A DNA stretch of 64,000 nt from Escherichia coli (GTDB lineage: Bacteria; Pseudomonadota; Gammaproteobacteria; Enterobacterales; Enterobacteriaceae). The notes under the pieces are model-generated. The model searched no databases. It saw nothing but the letters and a program-made list of their open reading frames with translations, and had not been told where the DNA came from. Below are positions 13,066 through 23,027 of the stretch, one piece after another. How positions within the stretch are numbered: the first letter of the stretch is position 1; each line of letters starts with the position of its first letter. The stretch is taken from NCBI RefSeq assembly GCF_003334385.1, contig NZ_QOWN01000016.1; one strand, 5' to 3'. Position numbers and translations under genes: made by a program.

Positions 13066-14398
<1,333 letters not shown>

Positions 14399-14416
14399 AA
14401 CTTAGTTCGTTTTAAA

Positions 14417-14444
14417 GATTCTGCAGACACTGTCTGCAGAATTC
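14417..14444. repeat. 28-bp near-perfect palindrome (solo copy) between convergent yhcH and yhcG
   Basis: GATTCTGCAGACACTGTCTGCAGAATTC; 19 bp after yhcH stop and 13 bp before yhcG stop codon; same family as the copies inside yhcG and after gltD. Confidence 0.8.
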
Positions 14445-14457
14445 GAAACCGCTGAAA

Positions 14458-15585
14458 TTAACGGCGTCTATAGCCTTCCTCTAGCACCGCCTGTGTTCGA
14501 ACGAGTTCATCTGCGAGTCGTTTCTCATCAGGTAGTTGCATCTTATATTCGCTTGCCAGAACGGTGTTAGGCAAACCTGCCAGAGCATAATGCGCTTCTC
14601 CGGCTCCTTTCTCTGCACAGAGAACCAGACCGATGGGCGGATTTTCATCCGGTAGCGTCCAGTGCTCTTTGGCGTAGTTGAGATACATATTCATCTGTCC
14701 GGCATCGCTATAGCTGAATTTGCCCACTTTTAGATCGACGATTAGCAGGCAGCGTAAACGGCGGTGGAAAAACAGCAGATCGACACGAAACCAGTTGTCA
14801 TCAATGCGTAACCTTCGCTGCCGACCAACAAAGGCAAAATCATCCCCAAGTTCCAGCATGAAATCCATCAGGTGGTTGATCAGCGCCTCCTCAAAATCGG
14901 ATTCTGAATATTCATCTTTCAATTCCAGAAATTCGAGCACAAAGGGATCGCGTATCGCCTGTTGCGGAAGAATATGCGTCTCGGCAGGAGCGTGTTGTTG
15001 CAGCATGGCTGATTTGTCATGTGACAGTAGTGTCCGCTCATAAAACTGGGTCGCAATTTGCCGCTCTAGCTGGCGAACAGACCAGCCACAGCGGAGCGTC
15101 TCTTTTTCATAAAAGCTGCGGGCGTCAGCGTTTTTAACGGAAAGTAAACGGACGTAGGTGGACCTGGGCAAGGGGAAAGATTTGGCAGACAGCGTCTGCC
15201 AAATCTTTGCCGATGGGAATTCTGCAGACGGTGTCTGCGGAATTCCCAATGGTGTTAATTCGCCAGACATTGTCTGGCGAATTTCAACATGTTGAAAAAA
15301 GAGGTAAAAAAGCCTCATTTGGCGTAAGTTTTTTGCAGAGAACCCACGCTTATACCTTAGACATAAATCCTTTGATAGTCGCTTGATTAGCTGCGCACCA
15401 TACGCAGCCCTGGCCTCGCCACCTTGTTCAAATTCGACAATTCGTCGGCCAATTTCCTGGTACGTCGCGGTCATTAACGCGTTAACGCTACGTACCGTTT
15501 CCGTCCGGGCGCTATCGACCAGATGAATAATACCGTCGTGGATTTGCTGGTAGCCTGCTGTGGTTCCTTCTGAGAGCGATTCCAT
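14458..15585 (-). CDS. yhcG: DUF1016-family protein with PD-(D/E)xK nuclease-like C-terminal domain
   Basis: 375-aa ORF; C-terminal ...RVDLLFF...LLIVDLKVGK resembles a D...(D/E)xK nuclease core; contains in-frame palindromic repeats. Confidence 0.85.
   Translation of the reverse strand: MESLSEGTTAGYQQIHDGIIHLVDSARTETVRSVNALMTATYQEIGRRIVEFEQGGEARAAYGAQLIKRLSKDLCLRYKRGFSAKNLRQMRLFYLFFQHVEIRQTMSGELTPLGIPQTPSAEFPSAKIWQTLSAKSFPLPRSTYVRLLSVKNADARSFYEKETLRCGWSVRQLERQIATQFYERTLLSHDKSAMLQQHAPAETHILPQQAIRDPFVLEFLELKDEYSESDFEEALINHLMDFMLELGDDFAFVGRQRRLRIDDNWFRVDLLFFHRRLRCLLIVDLKVGKFSYSDAGQMNMYLNYAKEHWTLPDENPPIGLVLCAEKGAGEAHYALAGLPNTVLASEYKMQLPDEKRLADELVRTQAVLEEGYRRR
15180..15283. repeat. three tandem 39-bp units, each with a ~25-33-bp palindrome, in frame within yhcG
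   Basis: ATTTGGCAGACAGCGTCTGCCAAAT (15180-15204), GGGAATTCTGCAGACGGTGTCTGCGGAATTCCC (15215-15247), AATTCGCCAGACATTGTCTGGCGAATT (15257-15283); encode IWQTLSAK / IPQTPSAE / IRQTMSGE on the minus strand. Confidence 0.85.
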
Positions 15586-15769
15586 TATCTGTCCCTTTAT
15601 ATGGAGCTAAGTTGAATAATGGAATGAGCTATACTCTGGGGGGTGAGCACTGAACAATTAAGAACAGCGTATTACATTTACTTTCCCCAAGATATGCGAA
15701 GAGCTTTCCTGAAACATTAACCGATCGTATAAAACGAATGCCTGATAGTACTCCTGTCCGGCATTGTTA

Positions 15770-16486
15770 TCACAAGTAGACTACGCTTATCACAGCTTTC
15801 CCATCAAGTTCGATTTTTTCTGAACCGCCTAAATCATTCGCGATAGATGCGCTCACCTGAAGCGGTATAATGGCGTTCGTTACAGGAGTTGGGGTTGTTT
15901 CACCTGGTTTTACAAAGGTGTAATAATAGCTTTGATCGACTGCAAGCGGATAAGCGGTGAGCGTTTGCCATGCTCTTTTTTGCCCTGTTATGACGGCATC
16001 TGCACCTGCTATTGATACAGCTAACGTCTGGCTACCATTGCTGGCACTAATGTTGTTGCTATCAATTAACACGGCATAACTACCGATATTTTTATTATCT
16101 TTTGTTTTCCCTAAGCCGAATAAGCGCGTTGTCTGGCTAATATAACCTCCGCCATTTAAGGTATATTTTACACCACTCTGACCCCCACTATCTTTTCCGG
16201 TGGTCATACTATCCATTCGTGTATCACGAGCGGTAATCGCAATGCTGGTAGCGGATTCGCAAGTTATAGTCATATTAATATTACGTGTTCCAATCTGTGT
16301 GTAGTGCTGCGTTGAAAGTCTATTGACTGAATGACTACCGAAGTTAACAACTCCGCCGTTGCTTAGTATTGGAGTACAAGCTGCAGCTTCCAGAGTCACC
16401 TTAACGTCAATTGATACTCTATCAGCGGCTTGCGCTGACATGGCAAAAAAGGCACTTCCGGCAATCAGTAATTTTACATTGTTCAT
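15770..16486 (-). CDS. yhcF: fimbrial-like protein (DUF1120 family), secreted
   Basis: 238-aa ORF with signal peptide MNNVKLLIAGSAFFAMSAQA; paralogous to GltF; last gene of the chaperone-usher cluster. Confidence 0.8.
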   Translation of the reverse strand: MNNVKLLIAGSAFFAMSAQAADRVSIDVKVTLEAAACTPILSNGGVVNFGSHSVNRLSTQHYTQIGTRNINMTITCESATSIAITARDTRMDSMTTGKDSGGQSGVKYTLNGGGYISQTTRLFGLGKTKDNKNIGSYAVLIDSNNISASNGSQTLAVSIAGADAVITGQKRAWQTLTAYPLAVDQSYYYTFVKPGETTPTPVTNAIIPLQVSASIANDLGGSEKIELDGKAVISVVYL

Positions 16487-17034
16487 TTTGCCTCCACCAG
16501 GACCGTCAGATTGCCTGTAATATCTGTCATGTCGGTTAGTTCCCCTTCATCCTTAAAAGCTGGAGCCATTGTCAGTGTGAGGCTAACGCTTTTACCGCTA
16601 TCAATTACCACTTCTTGACCATTTTGCATAAACACCAGCCAATTATTGGGGGAAGTACTAATTGATGCTGTTCCTGTGCTGCCCGGATTGTCATTTTTGC
16701 CACTGGCTAACGCCAGGTCGAGATTGTTACTACCTGAAAATGCATCGCTGGCGATCAGATTTAATGAACCATTCGGGCCAAATCCAAATCCGTTGTTGGA
16801 AATATTAGCGGTATTCAACTGAACACGAATATGAGCGTCCTGATCGCATTGCATTACCAGCGTGATTGTTCTGTCTGCTAATTGTGTTGTTTTACCCCGG
16901 TCAACTTGGCGCATGGCAGCACTTCGTTTGCCATAGTCGATATTTTGTATGCTACTGGAGATATTACACTCTGCCTGAGCGGCCATGGCGAAGTTCAGCA
17001 GCAGGCATCCTGTTATTATCCGTTTCATTGGCAC
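16483..17034 (-). CDS. yhcE: fimbrial-like secreted protein, apparently intact
   Basis: 183-aa ORF with signal peptide (..LLLNFAMAAQA); overlaps yhcD stop and yhcF start; no IS sequence present. Confidence 0.75.
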   Translation of the reverse strand: MPMKRIITGCLLLNFAMAAQAECNISSSIQNIDYGKRSAAMRQVDRGKTTQLADRTITLVMQCDQDAHIRVQLNTANISNNGFGFGPNGSLNLIASDAFSGSNNLDLALASGKNDNPGSTGTASISTSPNNWLVFMQNGQEVVIDSGKSVSLTLTMAPAFKDEGELTDMTDITGNLTVLVEAK

Positions 17035-19406
17035 TCTCCTGTTGCTGTCTCATAGAACACATCTTTTGGTGCATCTTCTGGGAATGTAAGGTGAATACGG
17101 CATGATTGCTGCTCATCTTTTATATCTAGCACCATGTCCGGTTTGATGTTATTGAGGAATACAACACCGTCATCCACTGATGTTGTCAGATAGTTGCCTT
17201 CACTATCTTCAATCGCAACGCCTCTGGGCAGTTTTTTGCCGTCGGAAAGTGTGATATTGAGTAATGCACGGCGTTGTGTTATCGCACTGAATCCGACTTT
17301 CCCTACTGCACCACGGCCTTGTTTGATCATTTTTGTGCCGTTACCGATATCGACATTTTTTGGCAAGCTGGCGGTATCGATCTCAACTCCTGATGTTCGC
17401 CACGACTGGATTGATGGAATGACGGCATTACCCCGAAAATCTGTCCATACTGGGCCTGCCTGAGATGTAATTCTGACACCTGCAATATTGTTATCCATTT
17501 TTGCGATGGCGAAAGTGTCATTGATAGTCCACGGTGAAAAGGTCACTCCCTGATCATGTACGGCAATACCACCTGACATCGTACCGTTGTAAGTACGGCT
17601 ATCACTGCCGCTTGCTCCTGCGGCAAGGCTGACTTGGGTGTAATGGAGATTGGAACTGATACTGCCGTTCAAGCTCGTTTCACGTTCGTCGTGATCTCGT
17701 TCAGCATTCACATAGTAGGACATCTCATCTGAGACGACTCCCATGACACCAGTACCATAGTGGGTTTTATGATCGTCATGGCGAGTATACAGTGTGGCGG
17801 TGTTTGATCTGCCAAATGGAATACTGATGTTGACGTAGAACAGATCACCATCGTCTTCATTATTTTCTGAAGCACTAAGTTGATGCTGCCAGTTGACGGA
17901 AACCGTGGCGTGTTTGAACGCTTTGTTCCAGTTAATATTAAGGTTGCTTGAGTCATTGTCACCGTCGTAACTATATGTTTTATAGCCACTGATGTTGAAA
18001 CCACCCAGAATGGAGTTAGACCAGTTTAAACCAAGCGCATAAGTGCTTTTAGTCGGATCGGTATAATCATCATCAATCGCTTCAGACAGTTCGCGATAAT
18101 GGCGATCAGATCGAGTGAGGCTGGTTGTTAGCCCAAGTGAAAATGGGAGATTGTAGTTCGCGTCAAGACGATATTTCTGTCCTTGCAGTGAGTCTTTCGT
18201 ATCCTGCGATGTACTAATTTGGCTGCTCACTGTTAAATCGGGCAGGGGAACCAGACTCGACCGGATTGATGCCGCCTGATAATTTTCTGCTACGATAACG
18301 CCGCCGTTCATTGCACTCCAGCGTGTCAGATTCCATCCGCTCGATGCACTAATTACCCAAGGTGATTCGTCATAGTCATCGTCTACCCGCCCTATCGCGA
18401 AGCGATAACCCTGGAAGCTTTCTACATGCTGATTAAACAGGGTGGAGGGAACAATATAGTTGTGCGAACTACCGTCTGTTTCGACAACGGTGACATTAAG
18501 ATCACTATTACCATTGCGAACAGGTACATCAGGGATAGTGAATGCGCCCGCAGGAACCAGAATGGAATGAATTAAAACTCCTTGTTGACGAATCTCGACA
18601 CGAGCCTGAGAGGTGTTGGCTATACCAGTAACTTGCACACCACTGCCGCTGGTTTGCAATGCGTTGTCCGGTGCGATTTCGATACCGTAAATACTGGCTC
18701 CTTCCAACACGCTATTATTGAGGTTAACTTCACCTGCTCGCATGAGTGTTTTAAGATCTGTAAAGGTACGTTGAAGGTAGGTTGACGAGTTCTGGTTACT
18801 GAATGTGCCATTTGTTTGTGTAAGGAACTGATGGCTGCGTAACATCCAGTCATTAATATTAATCCCGCCTTCAAGTGCAGCCTGGGAGTAGTCCGAACTC
18901 CCATTAGAAAATTCTGCACGGCTGCTCATCAGAGAGTAGTTTAGCAGCGCAGCTGTTCCACCAGTTGCTGCGTTTGTGAGATCCAACCCTATGGGAATGA
19001 TCGCCTGTGGTGAAACGATAATATCTAACGCTTCCTGGTTAGGTAATGGTGTGATTGTGGTACCCGGGTAGGACAATATATAGTCGTAACAGCCATTTTT
19101 TTCTTCAGAAGGAATTTTTAAACCGGCTTGTTGCAGAAATGCCTGATCAAGACAAATGTCGCCATTTTCATCAAAGCGCGTAGCAATGTTGCCTTTTTTT
19201 TCGCCATTTACTGATACTATCAGTGAATATTCACCTGGCAAAAAACGGGCTGAACGGGAAAAATAATGCGATATATTAGGATCTACACCTAGTGATTTTA
19301 ATGTTTCCCGATCAAAATCAACAGCGGCAATCTCTATACCATCTGCATTGGCTGGGGGAGAAAAGGCAAAACCAATGGTGTAGGCCAGTAACGTTTTTTT
19401 TAACAT
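17025..19406 (-). CDS. yhcD: fimbrial outer membrane usher protein
   Basis: ORF 17025..19424 (799 aa); likely start at MLKKTLLAYTIGFAFSPPANA (793 aa); usher-sized, between chaperone and subunit genes. Confidence 0.88.
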   Translation of the reverse strand: MLKKTLLAYTIGFAFSPPANADGIEIAAVDFDRETLKSLGVDPNISHYFSRSARFLPGEYSLIVSVNGEKKGNIATRFDENGDICLDQAFLQQAGLKIPSEEKNGCYDYILSYPGTTITPLPNQEALDIIVSPQAIIPIGLDLTNAATGGTAALLNYSLMSSRAEFSNGSSDYSQAALEGGININDWMLRSHQFLTQTNGTFSNQNSSTYLQRTFTDLKTLMRAGEVNLNNSVLEGASIYGIEIAPDNALQTSGSGVQVTGIANTSQARVEIRQQGVLIHSILVPAGAFTIPDVPVRNGNSDLNVTVVETDGSSHNYIVPSTLFNQHVESFQGYRFAIGRVDDDYDESPWVISASSGWNLTRWSAMNGGVIVAENYQAASIRSSLVPLPDLTVSSQISTSQDTKDSLQGQKYRLDANYNLPFSLGLTTSLTRSDRHYRELSEAIDDDYTDPTKSTYALGLNWSNSILGGFNISGYKTYSYDGDNDSSNLNINWNKAFKHATVSVNWQHQLSASENNEDDGDLFYVNISIPFGRSNTATLYTRHDDHKTHYGTGVMGVVSDEMSYYVNAERDHDERETSLNGSISSNLHYTQVSLAAGASGSDSRTYNGTMSGGIAVHDQGVTFSPWTINDTFAIAKMDNNIAGVRITSQAGPVWTDFRGNAVIPSIQSWRTSGVEIDTASLPKNVDIGNGTKMIKQGRGAVGKVGFSAITQRRALLNITLSDGKKLPRGVAIEDSEGNYLTTSVDDGVVFLNNIKPDMVLDIKDEQQSCRIHLTFPEDAPKDVFYETATGECQ

Positions 19407-19426
19407 CCTTGTCGCTCCAGGCAAAG

Positions 19427-20101
19427 TTATTTTAAGTCAGTGACATATTTATTACCGCGATAACCATATCGGCTGGCTGGGTAAAACTCGACTTTTGTAT
19501 CCGTAGCGTTTGTTAATGCAGTAGTTGTACTGGTGTGTGGTAGAAAATAGGTCTTATTTATAGCCCCCGTTTTTCCTGAAGGGAGCGTTTTAAATTGTAA
19601 GGTCATACGAACGACATAATTACTGGGGTTGCTAATCTCAATTTGGTCGCCATTTTTACGCCATTCCAGGAATTTCCAGGTCTCTCGCTCTTCCGGCAGG
19701 GAAGCCGGGTGGATCAGTACAGGTAGATCCTGACGAATTGAAACAGTAACTCTGCTGCTCTTGTCATCTTTTGGTGGAATACCTTCGAACGTTACGCGTT
19801 TCAGCTCTTCTGATTGCAGAGGAACAGTCGCCTGAAGTAAAAATCGAACCTGTTGTACTTGACCGGCTTCAACACGAATAACGGGCTGAGTCGGGATTAA
19901 ACGAATTGATTTATTGCTTTCAGGCAAATCAACAATGGTGGTGTAAAGCAATGAAGGATGATCATCTGTATTCTTAATATTAATACTAGCTTCACCACGC
20001 TTTTCATCAACCAGCAATACTGATGTTTCAGGAACCATCCCTGTGGCTAAGGTATTCATTGATGTTGTTATAAATACAGTGAATGTAATGTGTCTGAGCA
20101 T
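19427..20101 (-). CDS. yhcA: fimbrial periplasmic chaperone (PapD-like)
   Basis: 224-aa ORF with signal peptide; 2 bp upstream of usher gene. Confidence 0.88.
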   Translation of the reverse strand: MLRHITFTVFITTSMNTLATGMVPETSVLLVDEKRGEASINIKNTDDHPSLLYTTIVDLPESNKSIRLIPTQPVIRVEAGQVQQVRFLLQATVPLQSEELKRVTFEGIPPKDDKSSRVTVSIRQDLPVLIHPASLPEERETWKFLEWRKNGDQIEISNPSNYVVRMTLQFKTLPSGKTGAINKTYFLPHTSTTTALTNATDTKVEFYPASRYGYRGNKYVTDLK

Positions 20102-20272
20102 TTAAATTAAAACTCCTGTAATAATGATAAATAACGCAGAAACATATTGTTAATATATGTTATGCACTGTTTGCGATGAGATTGATTAAGACAGACCATG
20201 TCATAGGGCATAATCTGTCCGAGTTATAGCTAACTGGTTAATGCGTAAAAATAAAAACTGTATTACAAGTTC

Positions 20273-21037
20273 TTATAAATACTGAACGCTGATAGTGACG
20301 TTACCATCCAGTTTGATCGTTTCATCAGAACCAAGAATAGTATTGTCATTTACCGCAGCATCAATCAGTAACGGGAAGGTGACCGCTGTAATGGCAACAG
20401 GTGTCAGTTCCCCTGTTTTTGCAACAGAATAACCGCGCTCGATTGCTGAGCAACTTGTCAGCGAGCAGAATGCGCCATTAGATGAGGCTTTCCATGTGGG
20501 GGTCGCTGCTGACCAGTGGTCAGTTTGAATCAGGTCGACAGGAATTTCACCTGTATCGTCCGCCGCGTGAATCCCACCATTAGACCTGTCAATACCAATG
20601 GATGCAGCGCCAATTTTTTGTCCATTAGGCGCAGAACCTAAACCAAAGGCGTTTTTCGTTCCCTTCATATCTACGAGAGTATCATAAGCTTTTTCAATAT
20701 AGGATGTGTCGTTTAACGCTACAATGGTCGACTGACGGTTATCCTTGGAGGTTACAGCAATTAGCGTTGGTGCTGTGCAGGTTATATTTAATGTGCTGTT
20801 TTTGCGGCCCAGTTGAACCAGTTTATTACTTTTACCGGTCGGATTCAGCGCACTGTTATGATGTTTCCCATAGTCAACAATGCCGCCGCCCGTAACAACT
20901 GGGGTACATGCACCAGGGGTATACTCGCCGATGATAGTTAATTCTGTATCAGTTGAATCTGTTGCCATGGCACTGAATGCTGCAACAGAAAGTGCTGCAC
21001 AAATAGCAGCTGTTGTGAGGTTCTTTTTGAAAAACAT
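20273..21037 (-). CDS. gltF: GltF, periplasmic fimbrial-subunit-like protein (DUF1120)
   Basis: 254-aa ORF with signal peptide MFFKKNLTTAAICAALSVAAFSAMA; paralogous to YhcF; first gene of the chaperone-usher cluster. Confidence 0.85.
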   Translation of the reverse strand: MFFKKNLTTAAICAALSVAAFSAMATDSTDTELTIIGEYTPGACTPVVTGGGIVDYGKHHNSALNPTGKSNKLVQLGRKNSTLNITCTAPTLIAVTSKDNRQSTIVALNDTSYIEKAYDTLVDMKGTKNAFGLGSAPNGQKIGAASIGIDRSNGGIHAADDTGEIPVDLIQTDHWSAATPTWKASSNGAFCSLTSCSAIERGYSVAKTGELTPVAITAVTFPLLIDAAVNDNTILGSDETIKLDGNVTISVQYL

Positions 21038-21555
21038 ATGAACATATCCTTAATAACAAATTTATTTTTTAAAATAAAAAGCTGAAGCAGTATATATATC
21101 TGTTTGTGAATGTAAATAAATAACTCGTTCAGAAATAGCCAACTTGCTGGGATGTATTTATTTAATGAATTTTATAGTTACGATCATGTGAATAATAAGG
21201 TGCTGGTGAGGTGGTTTGTGGTGATAATTATTCATTACATGAATGTTTGCGCTGAAAAATAGGAAAATATATAGATAATTAAGGATAATATATTGGTTTT
21301 TTATATTCATATTTTGTATATTAATATCGAGACAATTTACATGGAATGAAAAGACTGAATAGCTTGCAGAATCGGTATTGTCAGAGGTGTTAACAAGTAA
21401 TTGAGACGGATTGTAAATGAGAAATTGCTTGATGTGCTTCACTCATCAGACTTGGTGAACAAAGCACAATTTATTGAAAATTATCCCTATTATAGGAAAG
21501 GTCAAACGCTCATGCCGCATTTGCCAGAAAACAACGCGCACTTCGTCAGTAATTT

Positions 21556-21583
21556 GATTCGCCAGACACAGTCTGGCGAATTC
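21556..21583. repeat. 28-bp near-perfect palindrome (solo copy) immediately 3' of gltD
   Basis: GATTCGCCAGACACAGTCTGGCGAATTC; ends 13 bp before the gltD stop codon at 21597 (i.e. just downstream on the gltD strand). Confidence 0.8.
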
Positions 21584-21596
21584 ATTGTTACCTCGC

Positions 21597-23027
<1,431 letters not shown>

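Follow-up and report, generated by a model that had tools for sequence, protein, structure and literature searches.

Introduction

Several described systems resemble the element studied here in one respect or another. REP/BIME repeats are expected in hundreds of dispersed extragenic copies and together with a RAYT (HUH Y1) transposase. ERIC/IRU is an imperfect palindrome of ~127 bp, and integron attC sites are imperfect palindromes of 57-141 bp with conserved R/L boxes, accompanied by an intI integrase and an attI site. Xer sites (dif/pdif) have 11-bp arms around a centre of 6-8 bp. Rickettsia palindromic elements (RPE) are ~100-150 bp long and are scattered in many unrelated genes of one genus.

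Here we describe a palindrome of 25-29 bp that lies just past gltD in Escherichia coli and compare it with these systems. The DNA that was analysed, called the window below, is a stretch of 64,000 nt from contig NZ_QOWN01000016.1. Four relatives of the palindrome lie in and beside yhcG, a gene of the DUF1016 family. DUF1016/YhcG is a very widespread family of uncharacterised nucleases, found in defence islands, restriction-modification loci, conjugative elements and prophages. With confidence that is about even, we read the element past gltD as a copy, outside the gene, of a DNA palindrome that has its home in YhcG/DUF1016 genes and can form a hairpin or cruciform; breakage at such palindromes would yield the extragenic copies.

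Results

A palindrome past gltD and its relatives in the window

A sequence-only reading of this DNA had pointed to a solo copy of a yhcG palindrome 13 bp past the gltD stop codon. It is indeed there. Window positions 21556-21583 read GATTCGCCAGACACAGTCTGGCGAATTC, in which 21557-21581 form a perfect palindrome with an 11-bp stem and a 3-nt loop, ACA, and an extra G-T pair is added at 21556/21582. A gap of 13 nt (21584-21596) separates it from the gltD stop. We call this element palR, and the features around it are as follows.

13934-14398, plus strand: nanQ (yhcH), convergent to yhcG; forms the second fixed boundary of the variable segment
14415-14443, no strand: palL, extragenic palindrome, ATTCTGCAGAC-ACT-GTCTGCAGAAT, 14 nt past the yhcG stop, between the convergent nanQ (yhcH) and yhcG
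14444-21553, no strand: segment between palL and palR (yhcG, yhcF, yhcE, yhcD, yhcA, gltF)
14458-15585, minus strand: yhcG, DUF1016_N and YhcG_C PD-(D/E)XK domains, PADLOC candidate defence gene PDC-S02; its palindromes encode linker residues ~101-139
15177-15205, minus strand: yhcG internal copy 3, codons KIWQTLSAKS, 15-bp stem; its outer edge, 15180, is the breakpoint of a common truncated allele
15216-15244, minus strand: yhcG internal copy 2, codons GIPQTPSAEF, one C-A mismatch on the sense strand
15255-15283, minus strand: yhcG internal copy 1, codons EIRQTMSGEL, same subtype as palR
21554-21582, no strand: palR, solo extragenic palindrome, core 21557-21581, ATTCGCCAGAC-ACA-GTCTGGCGAAT, 13 nt past the gltD stop
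21597-23015, minus strand: gltD, whose 3' untranslated region carries palR

The near-identity to an intragenic yhcG palindrome that had been noticed is complete in the stem, as both arms of palR are identical to those of the internal copy at 15258-15282. When the window is searched for the exact arms, only palR and 15259-15281 inside yhcG match. With a looser consensus, ATTYNGCAGACNNNGTCTGCNRAAT, and up to 3 mismatches, exactly five sites are found in the window (14418, 15180, 15219, 15258 and 21557), and shuffles give 0.00. A repeat search returns the same five-copy family within 7 kb, with start-to-start spacings of 762, 39, 39 and 6299 nt, so the family size that was first read from the letters holds. 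Three of the five copies lie inside the yhcG ORF and only two directly past a stop codon.

Folded as single-stranded DNA and compared with shuffles, single copies reach z = -5 to -7, and the triple in yhcG reaches -12 to -13. The inner triplet varies among the window copies (CGC/GCG, CTG/CAG, TGG/CCA) and is self-complementary in each. palR shares the 11-bp stem, the 3-nt loop, the A/T-rich outer end and the in-gene subtype of the DUF1016-associated palindromes described below.

The three yhcG copies, 39 nt apart, encode the 13-residue units EIRQTMSGELTPL, GIPQTPSAEFPSA and KIWQTLSAKSFPL. Owing to the symmetry of the palindrome, I-x-Q-T-x-S-x-E/K can be read from both strands in one and the same frame. 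Similar peptides can be read from the extragenic copies. Continued in the yhcG frame, the sequence past the yhcG stop reads FQRFRILQTVSAES across palL, and a read-through yhcG allele (P0021, 391 aa) translates palL as ILQTLSGE. In the gltD frame, the sequence past the gltD stop reads A R (stop) Q (stop) IRQTVSGES across palR.

The interval between gltF and palR (21038-21553) holds a 94-aa ORF on the minus strand, at 21158-21442. Among the candidates of a published screen is a small RNA in cis-antisense to the gltBDF operon (PMC3175480).

Known repeat classes

The sequence-only reading could not assign the palindrome to a named E. coli repeat class, and we could not either. At E ≤ 1, Rfam has 0 matches in window positions 14000-22000. 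In the curated record of MG1655, neither palR nor palL carries a repeat annotation or any other feature. Literature on yhcG, its protein families and the palindrome itself was searched, and the element was not found described there. The palindrome family tied to DUF1016 genes is, as far as we could find, previously undescribed.

Searched with a 38-nt stretch around palR, 5,387 E. coli genomes have 1-4 matching places each (median 2), and the matches that were inspected are either the gltD-proximal site or inside yhcG/DUF1016 genes. With so few places per genome, the element is not a dispersed repeat like REP, and the gene associated with it encodes a DUF1016_N + YhcG_C PD-(D/E)XK nuclease in place of the RAYT transposase that REP/BIME would bring. 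ERIC/IRU is rejected by length, 25-29 bp against ~127 bp. CRISPR is rejected as well, as there are three tandem copies only, with a 39-nt period and 13-14 nt spacers, placed in-frame within an ORF; an array would have direct repeats of ~28-37 nt and unique spacers about as long as the repeats. Thus, copy number, length and spacers bear out the initial exclusion of these three classes. The genes around the copies are nan, fimbrial and glt genes; CRISPR arrays usually have cas genes nearby.

Two classes of recombination site were also tried and rejected. Integron attC sites, with their imperfect palindromes and R/L boxes, differ from the element in size and in its perfect symmetry, and the ORFs at 12-29 kb of the window, examined for the attC/intI test, are nan, fimbrial and glt genes. 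The 11-bp arms would suit a Xer site, but the 3-nt centre, shortened to 0-1 nt in some homologues, falls short of the 6-8 bp of such sites.

Structural variation between nanQ and gltD

We compared the region past gltD across 5,410 E. coli genomes. It comes in three arrangements.

Class A (window and K-12; 1,225 genomes): nanQ forward, palL, then yhcG, yhcFEDA and gltF in reverse, palR, gltD in reverse
Class B (~1,000 genomes): nanQ forward, one palindrome, gltD in reverse; without yhcG and without the gltF cluster
Class C (the majority of genomes): nanQ forward, palL, yhcG in reverse, gltD in reverse; without palR

Class C is probably ancestral, since its gltD-yhcG adjacency is common to Salmonella and Pseudocitrobacter. 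The homology between classes A and B breaks at 21557, the outer edge of palR. The class B palindrome is a perfect one of the GC type with loop ACT, and it is not the chimera expected from a simple crossover of palL and palR between extant alleles. One Pseudocitrobacter genome has a class B-like empty site with a solo palindrome and a ~45-nt flank homologous to the K-12 palR flank. These ~45 nt, on the gltF side of palR, are thus conserved in a Pseudocitrobacter genome that has neither yhcG nor gltF.

Breakpoints inside yhcG fall on the palindromes too. In the E. coli B lineage, and in others too, a common truncated allele retains only the N-terminal part and the palindromes, and its junction is exactly 15180. 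Here the 3' two-thirds of yhcG and palL (window 14399-15179) are replaced by ~470 bp of foreign DNA (L192 1955-2426, and L193). The replacement carries a 101-aa ORF annotated "transposase" in RefSeq, and searches of Pfam and PHROG gave no match for it; with no such match, the ORF identifies no mobilising enzyme. One strain has a further IS1 in the same spot.

In the Escherichia albertii type strain (L054 3417-3480), an internal copy is joined to palL by a deletion, which leaves the chimera ATTGGCAGAC-ACT-GTCTGCAGAAT and a yhcG of 125 codons. A 307-residue allele has a deletion from the start of copy 1. The 39-nt unit also varies in number, from 1 to 3. In E. coli and Escherichia, the lengths of the yhcG alleles (349, 362 and 375 residues) are set apart by whole units of 13 residues. 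A single unit is present in Salmonella and Citrobacter, and three are present in Pseudocitrobacter.

The internal copies are not always accompanied by external ones. yhcG of Salmonella and Pseudocitrobacter has internal copies and no extragenic ones, so the flanking copies are not a required part of the system. A Christensenellaceae MAG (L079 1148-2358) has a complete DUF1016 gene between direct repeats of ~50 nt, each with a perfect palindrome, ATTTGCCAGACAGTGTCTGGCAAAT, and the internal site of this gene is degenerate (8 of 11 pairs). From its sequence, this locus looks like a cassette bounded by duplicated sites. Truncation or splitting affects 18 of 83 genes that bear the palindrome, and in about half of these 18 the break comes no more than ~40 residues past it.

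Two further observations concern the same interval. In class C genomes (L002 11960-12000, L054 2935-2975), where palR is absent, another G+C-rich inverted repeat, CAGCGCCG...CGGCGCTG, lies past the gltD stop, and Pseudocitrobacter has a relative of it. MG1655 carries an IS5 in yhcE (L198 6186-7930), and the window (yhcE region 16483-17034) has no IS5 there; strains other than MG1655 match it best, at 100% identity. The window is thus like K-12 in structure without being MG1655.

Linkage to DUF1016 genes across prokaryotes

A loose pattern, ATTYNNCAGACNNNGTCTGNNRAAT, in which the inner bases are free and pairing is not required, was scanned in one genome per species, 100,044 species in all. At least 120 loci were found, and chance expects ~1. 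The matches listed come from Proteobacteria, Firmicutes, Bacteroidota, Acidobacteriota, Verrucomicrobiota, Planctomycetota, Myxococcota, Chlorobi and many candidate phyla, and archaea are among them (Methanoregula, Woesearchaeota, Altiarchaeales).

Among the matches listed, 86 of 132 copies are inside the aligned region of a YhcG/DUF1016 homologue and 12 are within 3.3 kb of one, 9 of these within 100 nt; the loci of the other 34 have no detectable YhcG homologue. The family, first noticed in the neighbourhood of yhcG and glt, is therefore not peculiar to it, as DUF1016 genes across prokaryotes carry such palindromes.

The position in the gene is fixed. Of the copies listed that lie inside phmmer-detected ORFs, 84 of 89 occupy frame 0, and they share one place in the protein, immediately ahead of the LSWSHY motif. 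A general bias towards gene 3' ends is not seen, as most copies listed are in-frame inside DUF1016 genes.

Free positions 4, 5 and 6 are paired in 84, 81 and 93% of the copies listed, against 50, 25 and 25% by chance. The residue pairs that are encoded (L/A, F/G, Q/V, R/D, W/A) are those expected of reverse-complementary codons and make no sense as protein chemistry. In 66% of the copies listed the loop reads A-S-T, and the core is symmetric through the centre; a pairing association between loop positions 1 and 3 was looked for, and none was found. In the scanned loci, paralogues that lack the exact motif have perfect palindromes of other sequence at the same spot, for example ATTGTGCAACG-GGG-CGTTGCACAAT, which encodes IVQRGVAQ.

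Solo copies in other taxa are mostly intergenic and often near gene ends, among the matches listed. Among the genes next to them are hsdR, a MobF/TraI relaxase, an integrase and defence genes of SIR2-like and MADS type, as well as housekeeping genes. Among the matches listed, the free positions are paired in 82/68/82% of the solo copies versus 85/86/97% of the gene-linked copies, and this weaker pairing fits relics, judged by sequence. Extragenic copies are a minority and look like by-products of rearrangement.

Some loci have more complex arrangements. In a Clostridiales MAG (L081 3739 and 4685), two non-identical family palindromes flank a 255-aa ORF directly downstream of a type I hsdR, and no DUF1016 gene is found in the surrounding 7 kb. 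In a Legionellales MAG (L008 4089-4136), two family palindromes overlap, 23 nt apart, and in a Myxococcales MAG (L017 5721-5769) the palindrome extends to ~23 bp per arm.

Covariation in genes chosen without the motif

Because the motif scan selects for the motif, a sample chosen without it is needed. We fetched 69 viral-contig loci by two peptide patterns of the C-terminal nuclease domain only. The best 11+3+11 palindrome in these genes is almost always in frame 0, at about nt 250-370, and the stems are quite different, such as AAATCCGAGAC-AGT-GTCTCGGATTT, ATTGTGTCATT-TCA-AATGACACAAT and ATCATGTACGC-ATT-GCGTACACAAT.

The palindrome column was then set from the protein alignment and not from a palindrome score. 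At this column, 33 of 40 distinct viral-contig genes have 8-11 of 11 pairs. The background elsewhere in the same genes is 0.03% of windows with at least 9 pairs (0.0003 per window). All 11 pairs change on both sides in this alignment. The share of paired cells is 85.9%. In shuffles it is 59.3%, and none of 500 comes as high; with slid partners it is 24-45%. For covariation, the score is 0.59 versus 0.13. G-U accounts for only 7 of 383 cells in this modest sample, which is unlike a typical conserved RNA helix.

At the same site, some viral-contig homologues carry a palindrome of 24 nt whose even centre leaves no spacer, such as ATTGTGAACACG|CGTGTTCACAAT, so the length of the centre is not fixed at 3 nt. 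Mismatches on the sense strand are 5 G-T versus 19 A-C. A structure of the antisense strand was considered from this asymmetry and rejected, as synonymous third-position transitions give A-C at 4 of 5 fixed sites, the same 4:1 ratio. The strand asymmetry is uninformative either way, since synonymous transitions alone predict it.

With 11 covarying pairs, rare G·U and a disordered encoded linker, the alignment indicates that the conserved object is a base-paired nucleic acid rather than a protein, with the peptide as its by-product.

RNA, duplex DNA or folded DNA

A base-paired element could act in RNA. The hairpins of palR and palL would then end or stabilise the gltBD, yhcG and nanQ transcripts, the class B copy would be a bidirectional terminator, and the intragenic copies would be regulatory mRNA hairpins for pausing, processing or protein binding. 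The places of palR and palL, 13 and 14 nt past stop codons, agree with this, as do the strength of the hairpins against shuffles and the mostly intergenic solo copies elsewhere, often near gene ends. The class B copy also does, as it lies between the convergent nanQ and gltD with moderately T-rich flanks, TTTATTGTT on one strand and TTTATAAAA on the other.

However, an intrinsic terminator is rejected for the window, where a promoter/terminator scan picks none of the five copies. On the gltD strand, the K-12-type stem is followed by CAAATTACTG. As no T-run follows the stem, the window copies are not terminator-like, and the terminator that had been implied for gltBD finds no support in the sequence. 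gltF is regarded as a member of a gltBDF operon (PMC1784095), and this would imply read-through past palR. The element also occurs inside ORFs of both bacteria and archaea, whose termination machineries differ, and its G-U pairs are rare. An RNA role for the family is thus unlikely in our estimate. As a 3' stem-loop or terminator, the element is plausible only for the class B allele, and its intragenic conservation would be left unexplained.

Alternatively, the element could be an operator read as duplex DNA. A dimeric protein, either the N-terminal helical domain of YhcG or another regulator, would bind ATT...CAGAC-A-S-T-GTCTG...AAT, so that copies repress or loop yhcG and strays control their neighbours. 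The conserved core, symmetric through its centre, and the frequent A-S-T loop suit such a protein. In three loci (L027, L048, L099), a copy lies directly upstream of the RBS of a DUF1016 gene that has an internal copy too, as operator pairs with an intragenic site do. On the other hand, inner triplets differ within one genome, each being self-complementary, in L007 and L009 as in the window. If the protein ignored the inner bases, they would not stay complementary, and no single protein could recognise every version of them. Moreover, most DUF1016 genes have the internal copy only. We regard the operator as quite improbable.

Folded DNA, which is the form assumed in our preferred reading, is favoured over RNA because G-U is rare, the core is symmetric through the centre and the element is common to bacteria and archaea.

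The YhcG protein at the palindrome

Precomputed Pfam assignments on close YhcG homologues are PF17761 and PF06250, and YhcG matches the PADLOC family PDC-S02, a candidate single-gene defence family, with E 2.8e-131. The predicted nuclease core of YhcG matches NucS and restriction-type folds. A YhcG sequence search of solved structures and of NCBIfam returned nothing informative.

In an AlphaFold model built on 44 homologues, residues 103-131 have pLDDT <50 and lie between confident helices. The peptide that the palindrome encodes is accordingly a predicted disordered linker, and it is highly variable among homologues. Many PDC-S02 models are N-terminal fragments ending at residues 100-113, which is at the palindrome.

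DUF1016 is reported to be enriched beside genes undergoing programmed inversion (PMC9881135), and for this reason the palindrome was tested as a crossover point of N- and C-terminal modules. Module swapping is rejected. The identities of the N and C parts are correlated with r = 0.81 (0.83 for C halves), and no chimeras were found.

Discussion

palR is a member of a palindrome family that covaries and is linked to DUF1016 genes, and breakpoints at the nanQ-gltD locus coincide with palindromes of this family. The reading that we prefer, at roughly even odds, joins these observations as follows. The primary home of the palindrome would be one fixed in-frame spot, the DUF1016 linker before LSWSHY. 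It may act there as DNA, in the form of an intrastrand hairpin or an extruded cruciform. The likely partner would be the YhcG nuclease itself, the predicted core of which is like those of junction- and structure-specific nucleases. Cutting or stalling at the base or the centre of the structure could then make the site a hotspot of insertion, deletion and duplication. Extragenic copies such as palR and palL would arise from breakage and rejoining at palindromes and take part in it. With palL and palR bounding the yhcG-gltF segment, loss of the segment would leave the single palindrome seen between nanQ and gltD. palR itself is most likely a junction relic. Its stem-loop, in the 3' untranslated region of gltD, may incidentally protect the transcript end.

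Some considerations restrain this reading. Any repeated short palindrome can be a rearrangement hotspot, and the coincidence of breakpoints does not by itself show that a nuclease is involved. A palindrome of 25 bp extrudes poorly in vivo. If a gene keeps the substrate of its own nuclease, some protection or regulation is needed, and this counts against our preferred reading.

It is very doubtful that the palindrome is functionless and self-perpetuating, an ancient inverted duplication in a tolerant linker that is maintained by arm-to-arm correction in the hairpin and sheds decaying extragenic debris. In its favour are the disorder and high variability of the encoded peptide, the weaker pairing of solo copies and the ease with which units duplicate, as the three local copies and the unit-number variants show. 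Against it, most family members in bacteria, archaea and viral contigs keep the one position with all 11 pairs turned over, and palindromes, being prone to deletion as at the nanQ-gltD locus, are hard to sustain without selection. The subfamily core CAGAC...GTCTG is conserved across phyla as well.

Returning to the folded DNA palindrome of DUF1016 genes, we tentatively consider a stronger form of it, which is possible but less than likely. The palindrome could be the cognate cis-acting substrate of the YhcG family, taken as junction-resolvase-like nucleases that recognise it in and around their own genes. If so, this would be a new nuclease-palindrome partnership with a logic comparable to that of RAYT and REP, and DUF1016 genes could be self-mobilising or homing cassettes. 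Alternatively, a widespread candidate anti-phage nuclease might have its activity gated by a structure in the DNA or mRNA of its own gene. Solo copies such as palR would then be footprints or targets of a YhcG-family nuclease.

A base-paired element at one in-frame position is the first concrete handle on what YhcG-family proteins may recognise, and it suggests a specific candidate substrate for a candidate defence nuclease family. It explains why family members are frequently annotated as N-terminal fragments. It also explains a common nan-glt polymorphism of E. coli, in which yhcG and the gltF-yhcADEF fimbrial cluster are present or absent. Furthermore, it is a clear case of a protein linker whose peptide sequence is set by selection on the structure of DNA or RNA.

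Among known systems, Holliday-junction resolvases resemble the proposed partner. The nuclease core of YhcG is predicted to be of the same structural class as Hjc, T7 endonuclease I and NucS-like PD-(D/E)XK resolvases (PMC1189080). Like the substrates of resolvases, a perfect palindrome can extrude a four-way junction, and breakpoints lie at the palindrome base. YhcG is compared with these enzymes through its predicted fold, and the resemblance is a lead rather than a test.

Intrinsic and bidirectional terminators share with the element a G+C-containing stem-loop just past a stop codon and, for the class B copy, a place between convergent genes with T-rich flanks. Unlike them, K-12-type copies have no T-run, copies occur inside ORFs and the core is conserved across phyla including archaea.

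In attC arrays and pdif modules, as here, imperfect or perfect palindromes delimit a stretch of gene size that some strains have and others lack. attC sites work in the form of a folded single strand, and the palindrome would resemble them in this. Here, however, neither an integron integrase nor a Xer-type architecture was noticed at the loci, and the key copy is intragenic.

REP/REPIN with RAYT (TnpA_REP) is similar in that a short hairpin palindrome is tied to one nuclease or transposase gene, with copies that flank the partner gene, extragenic solos near gene ends and rearrangement hotspots. The differences are that the partner here is a PD-(D/E)XK nuclease, that the main copy is in-frame inside the ORF at a fixed position, that E. 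coli genomes have at most 4 places instead of hundreds and that the palindrome sequence is unrelated to REP.

Finally, RPE are also palindromic DNA placed in-frame within protein genes and tolerated as an extra peptide segment. The element described here is shorter, 25-29 bp, and instead of being spread over unrelated genes of one genus, it occupies one conserved site in one gene family across prokaryotes.
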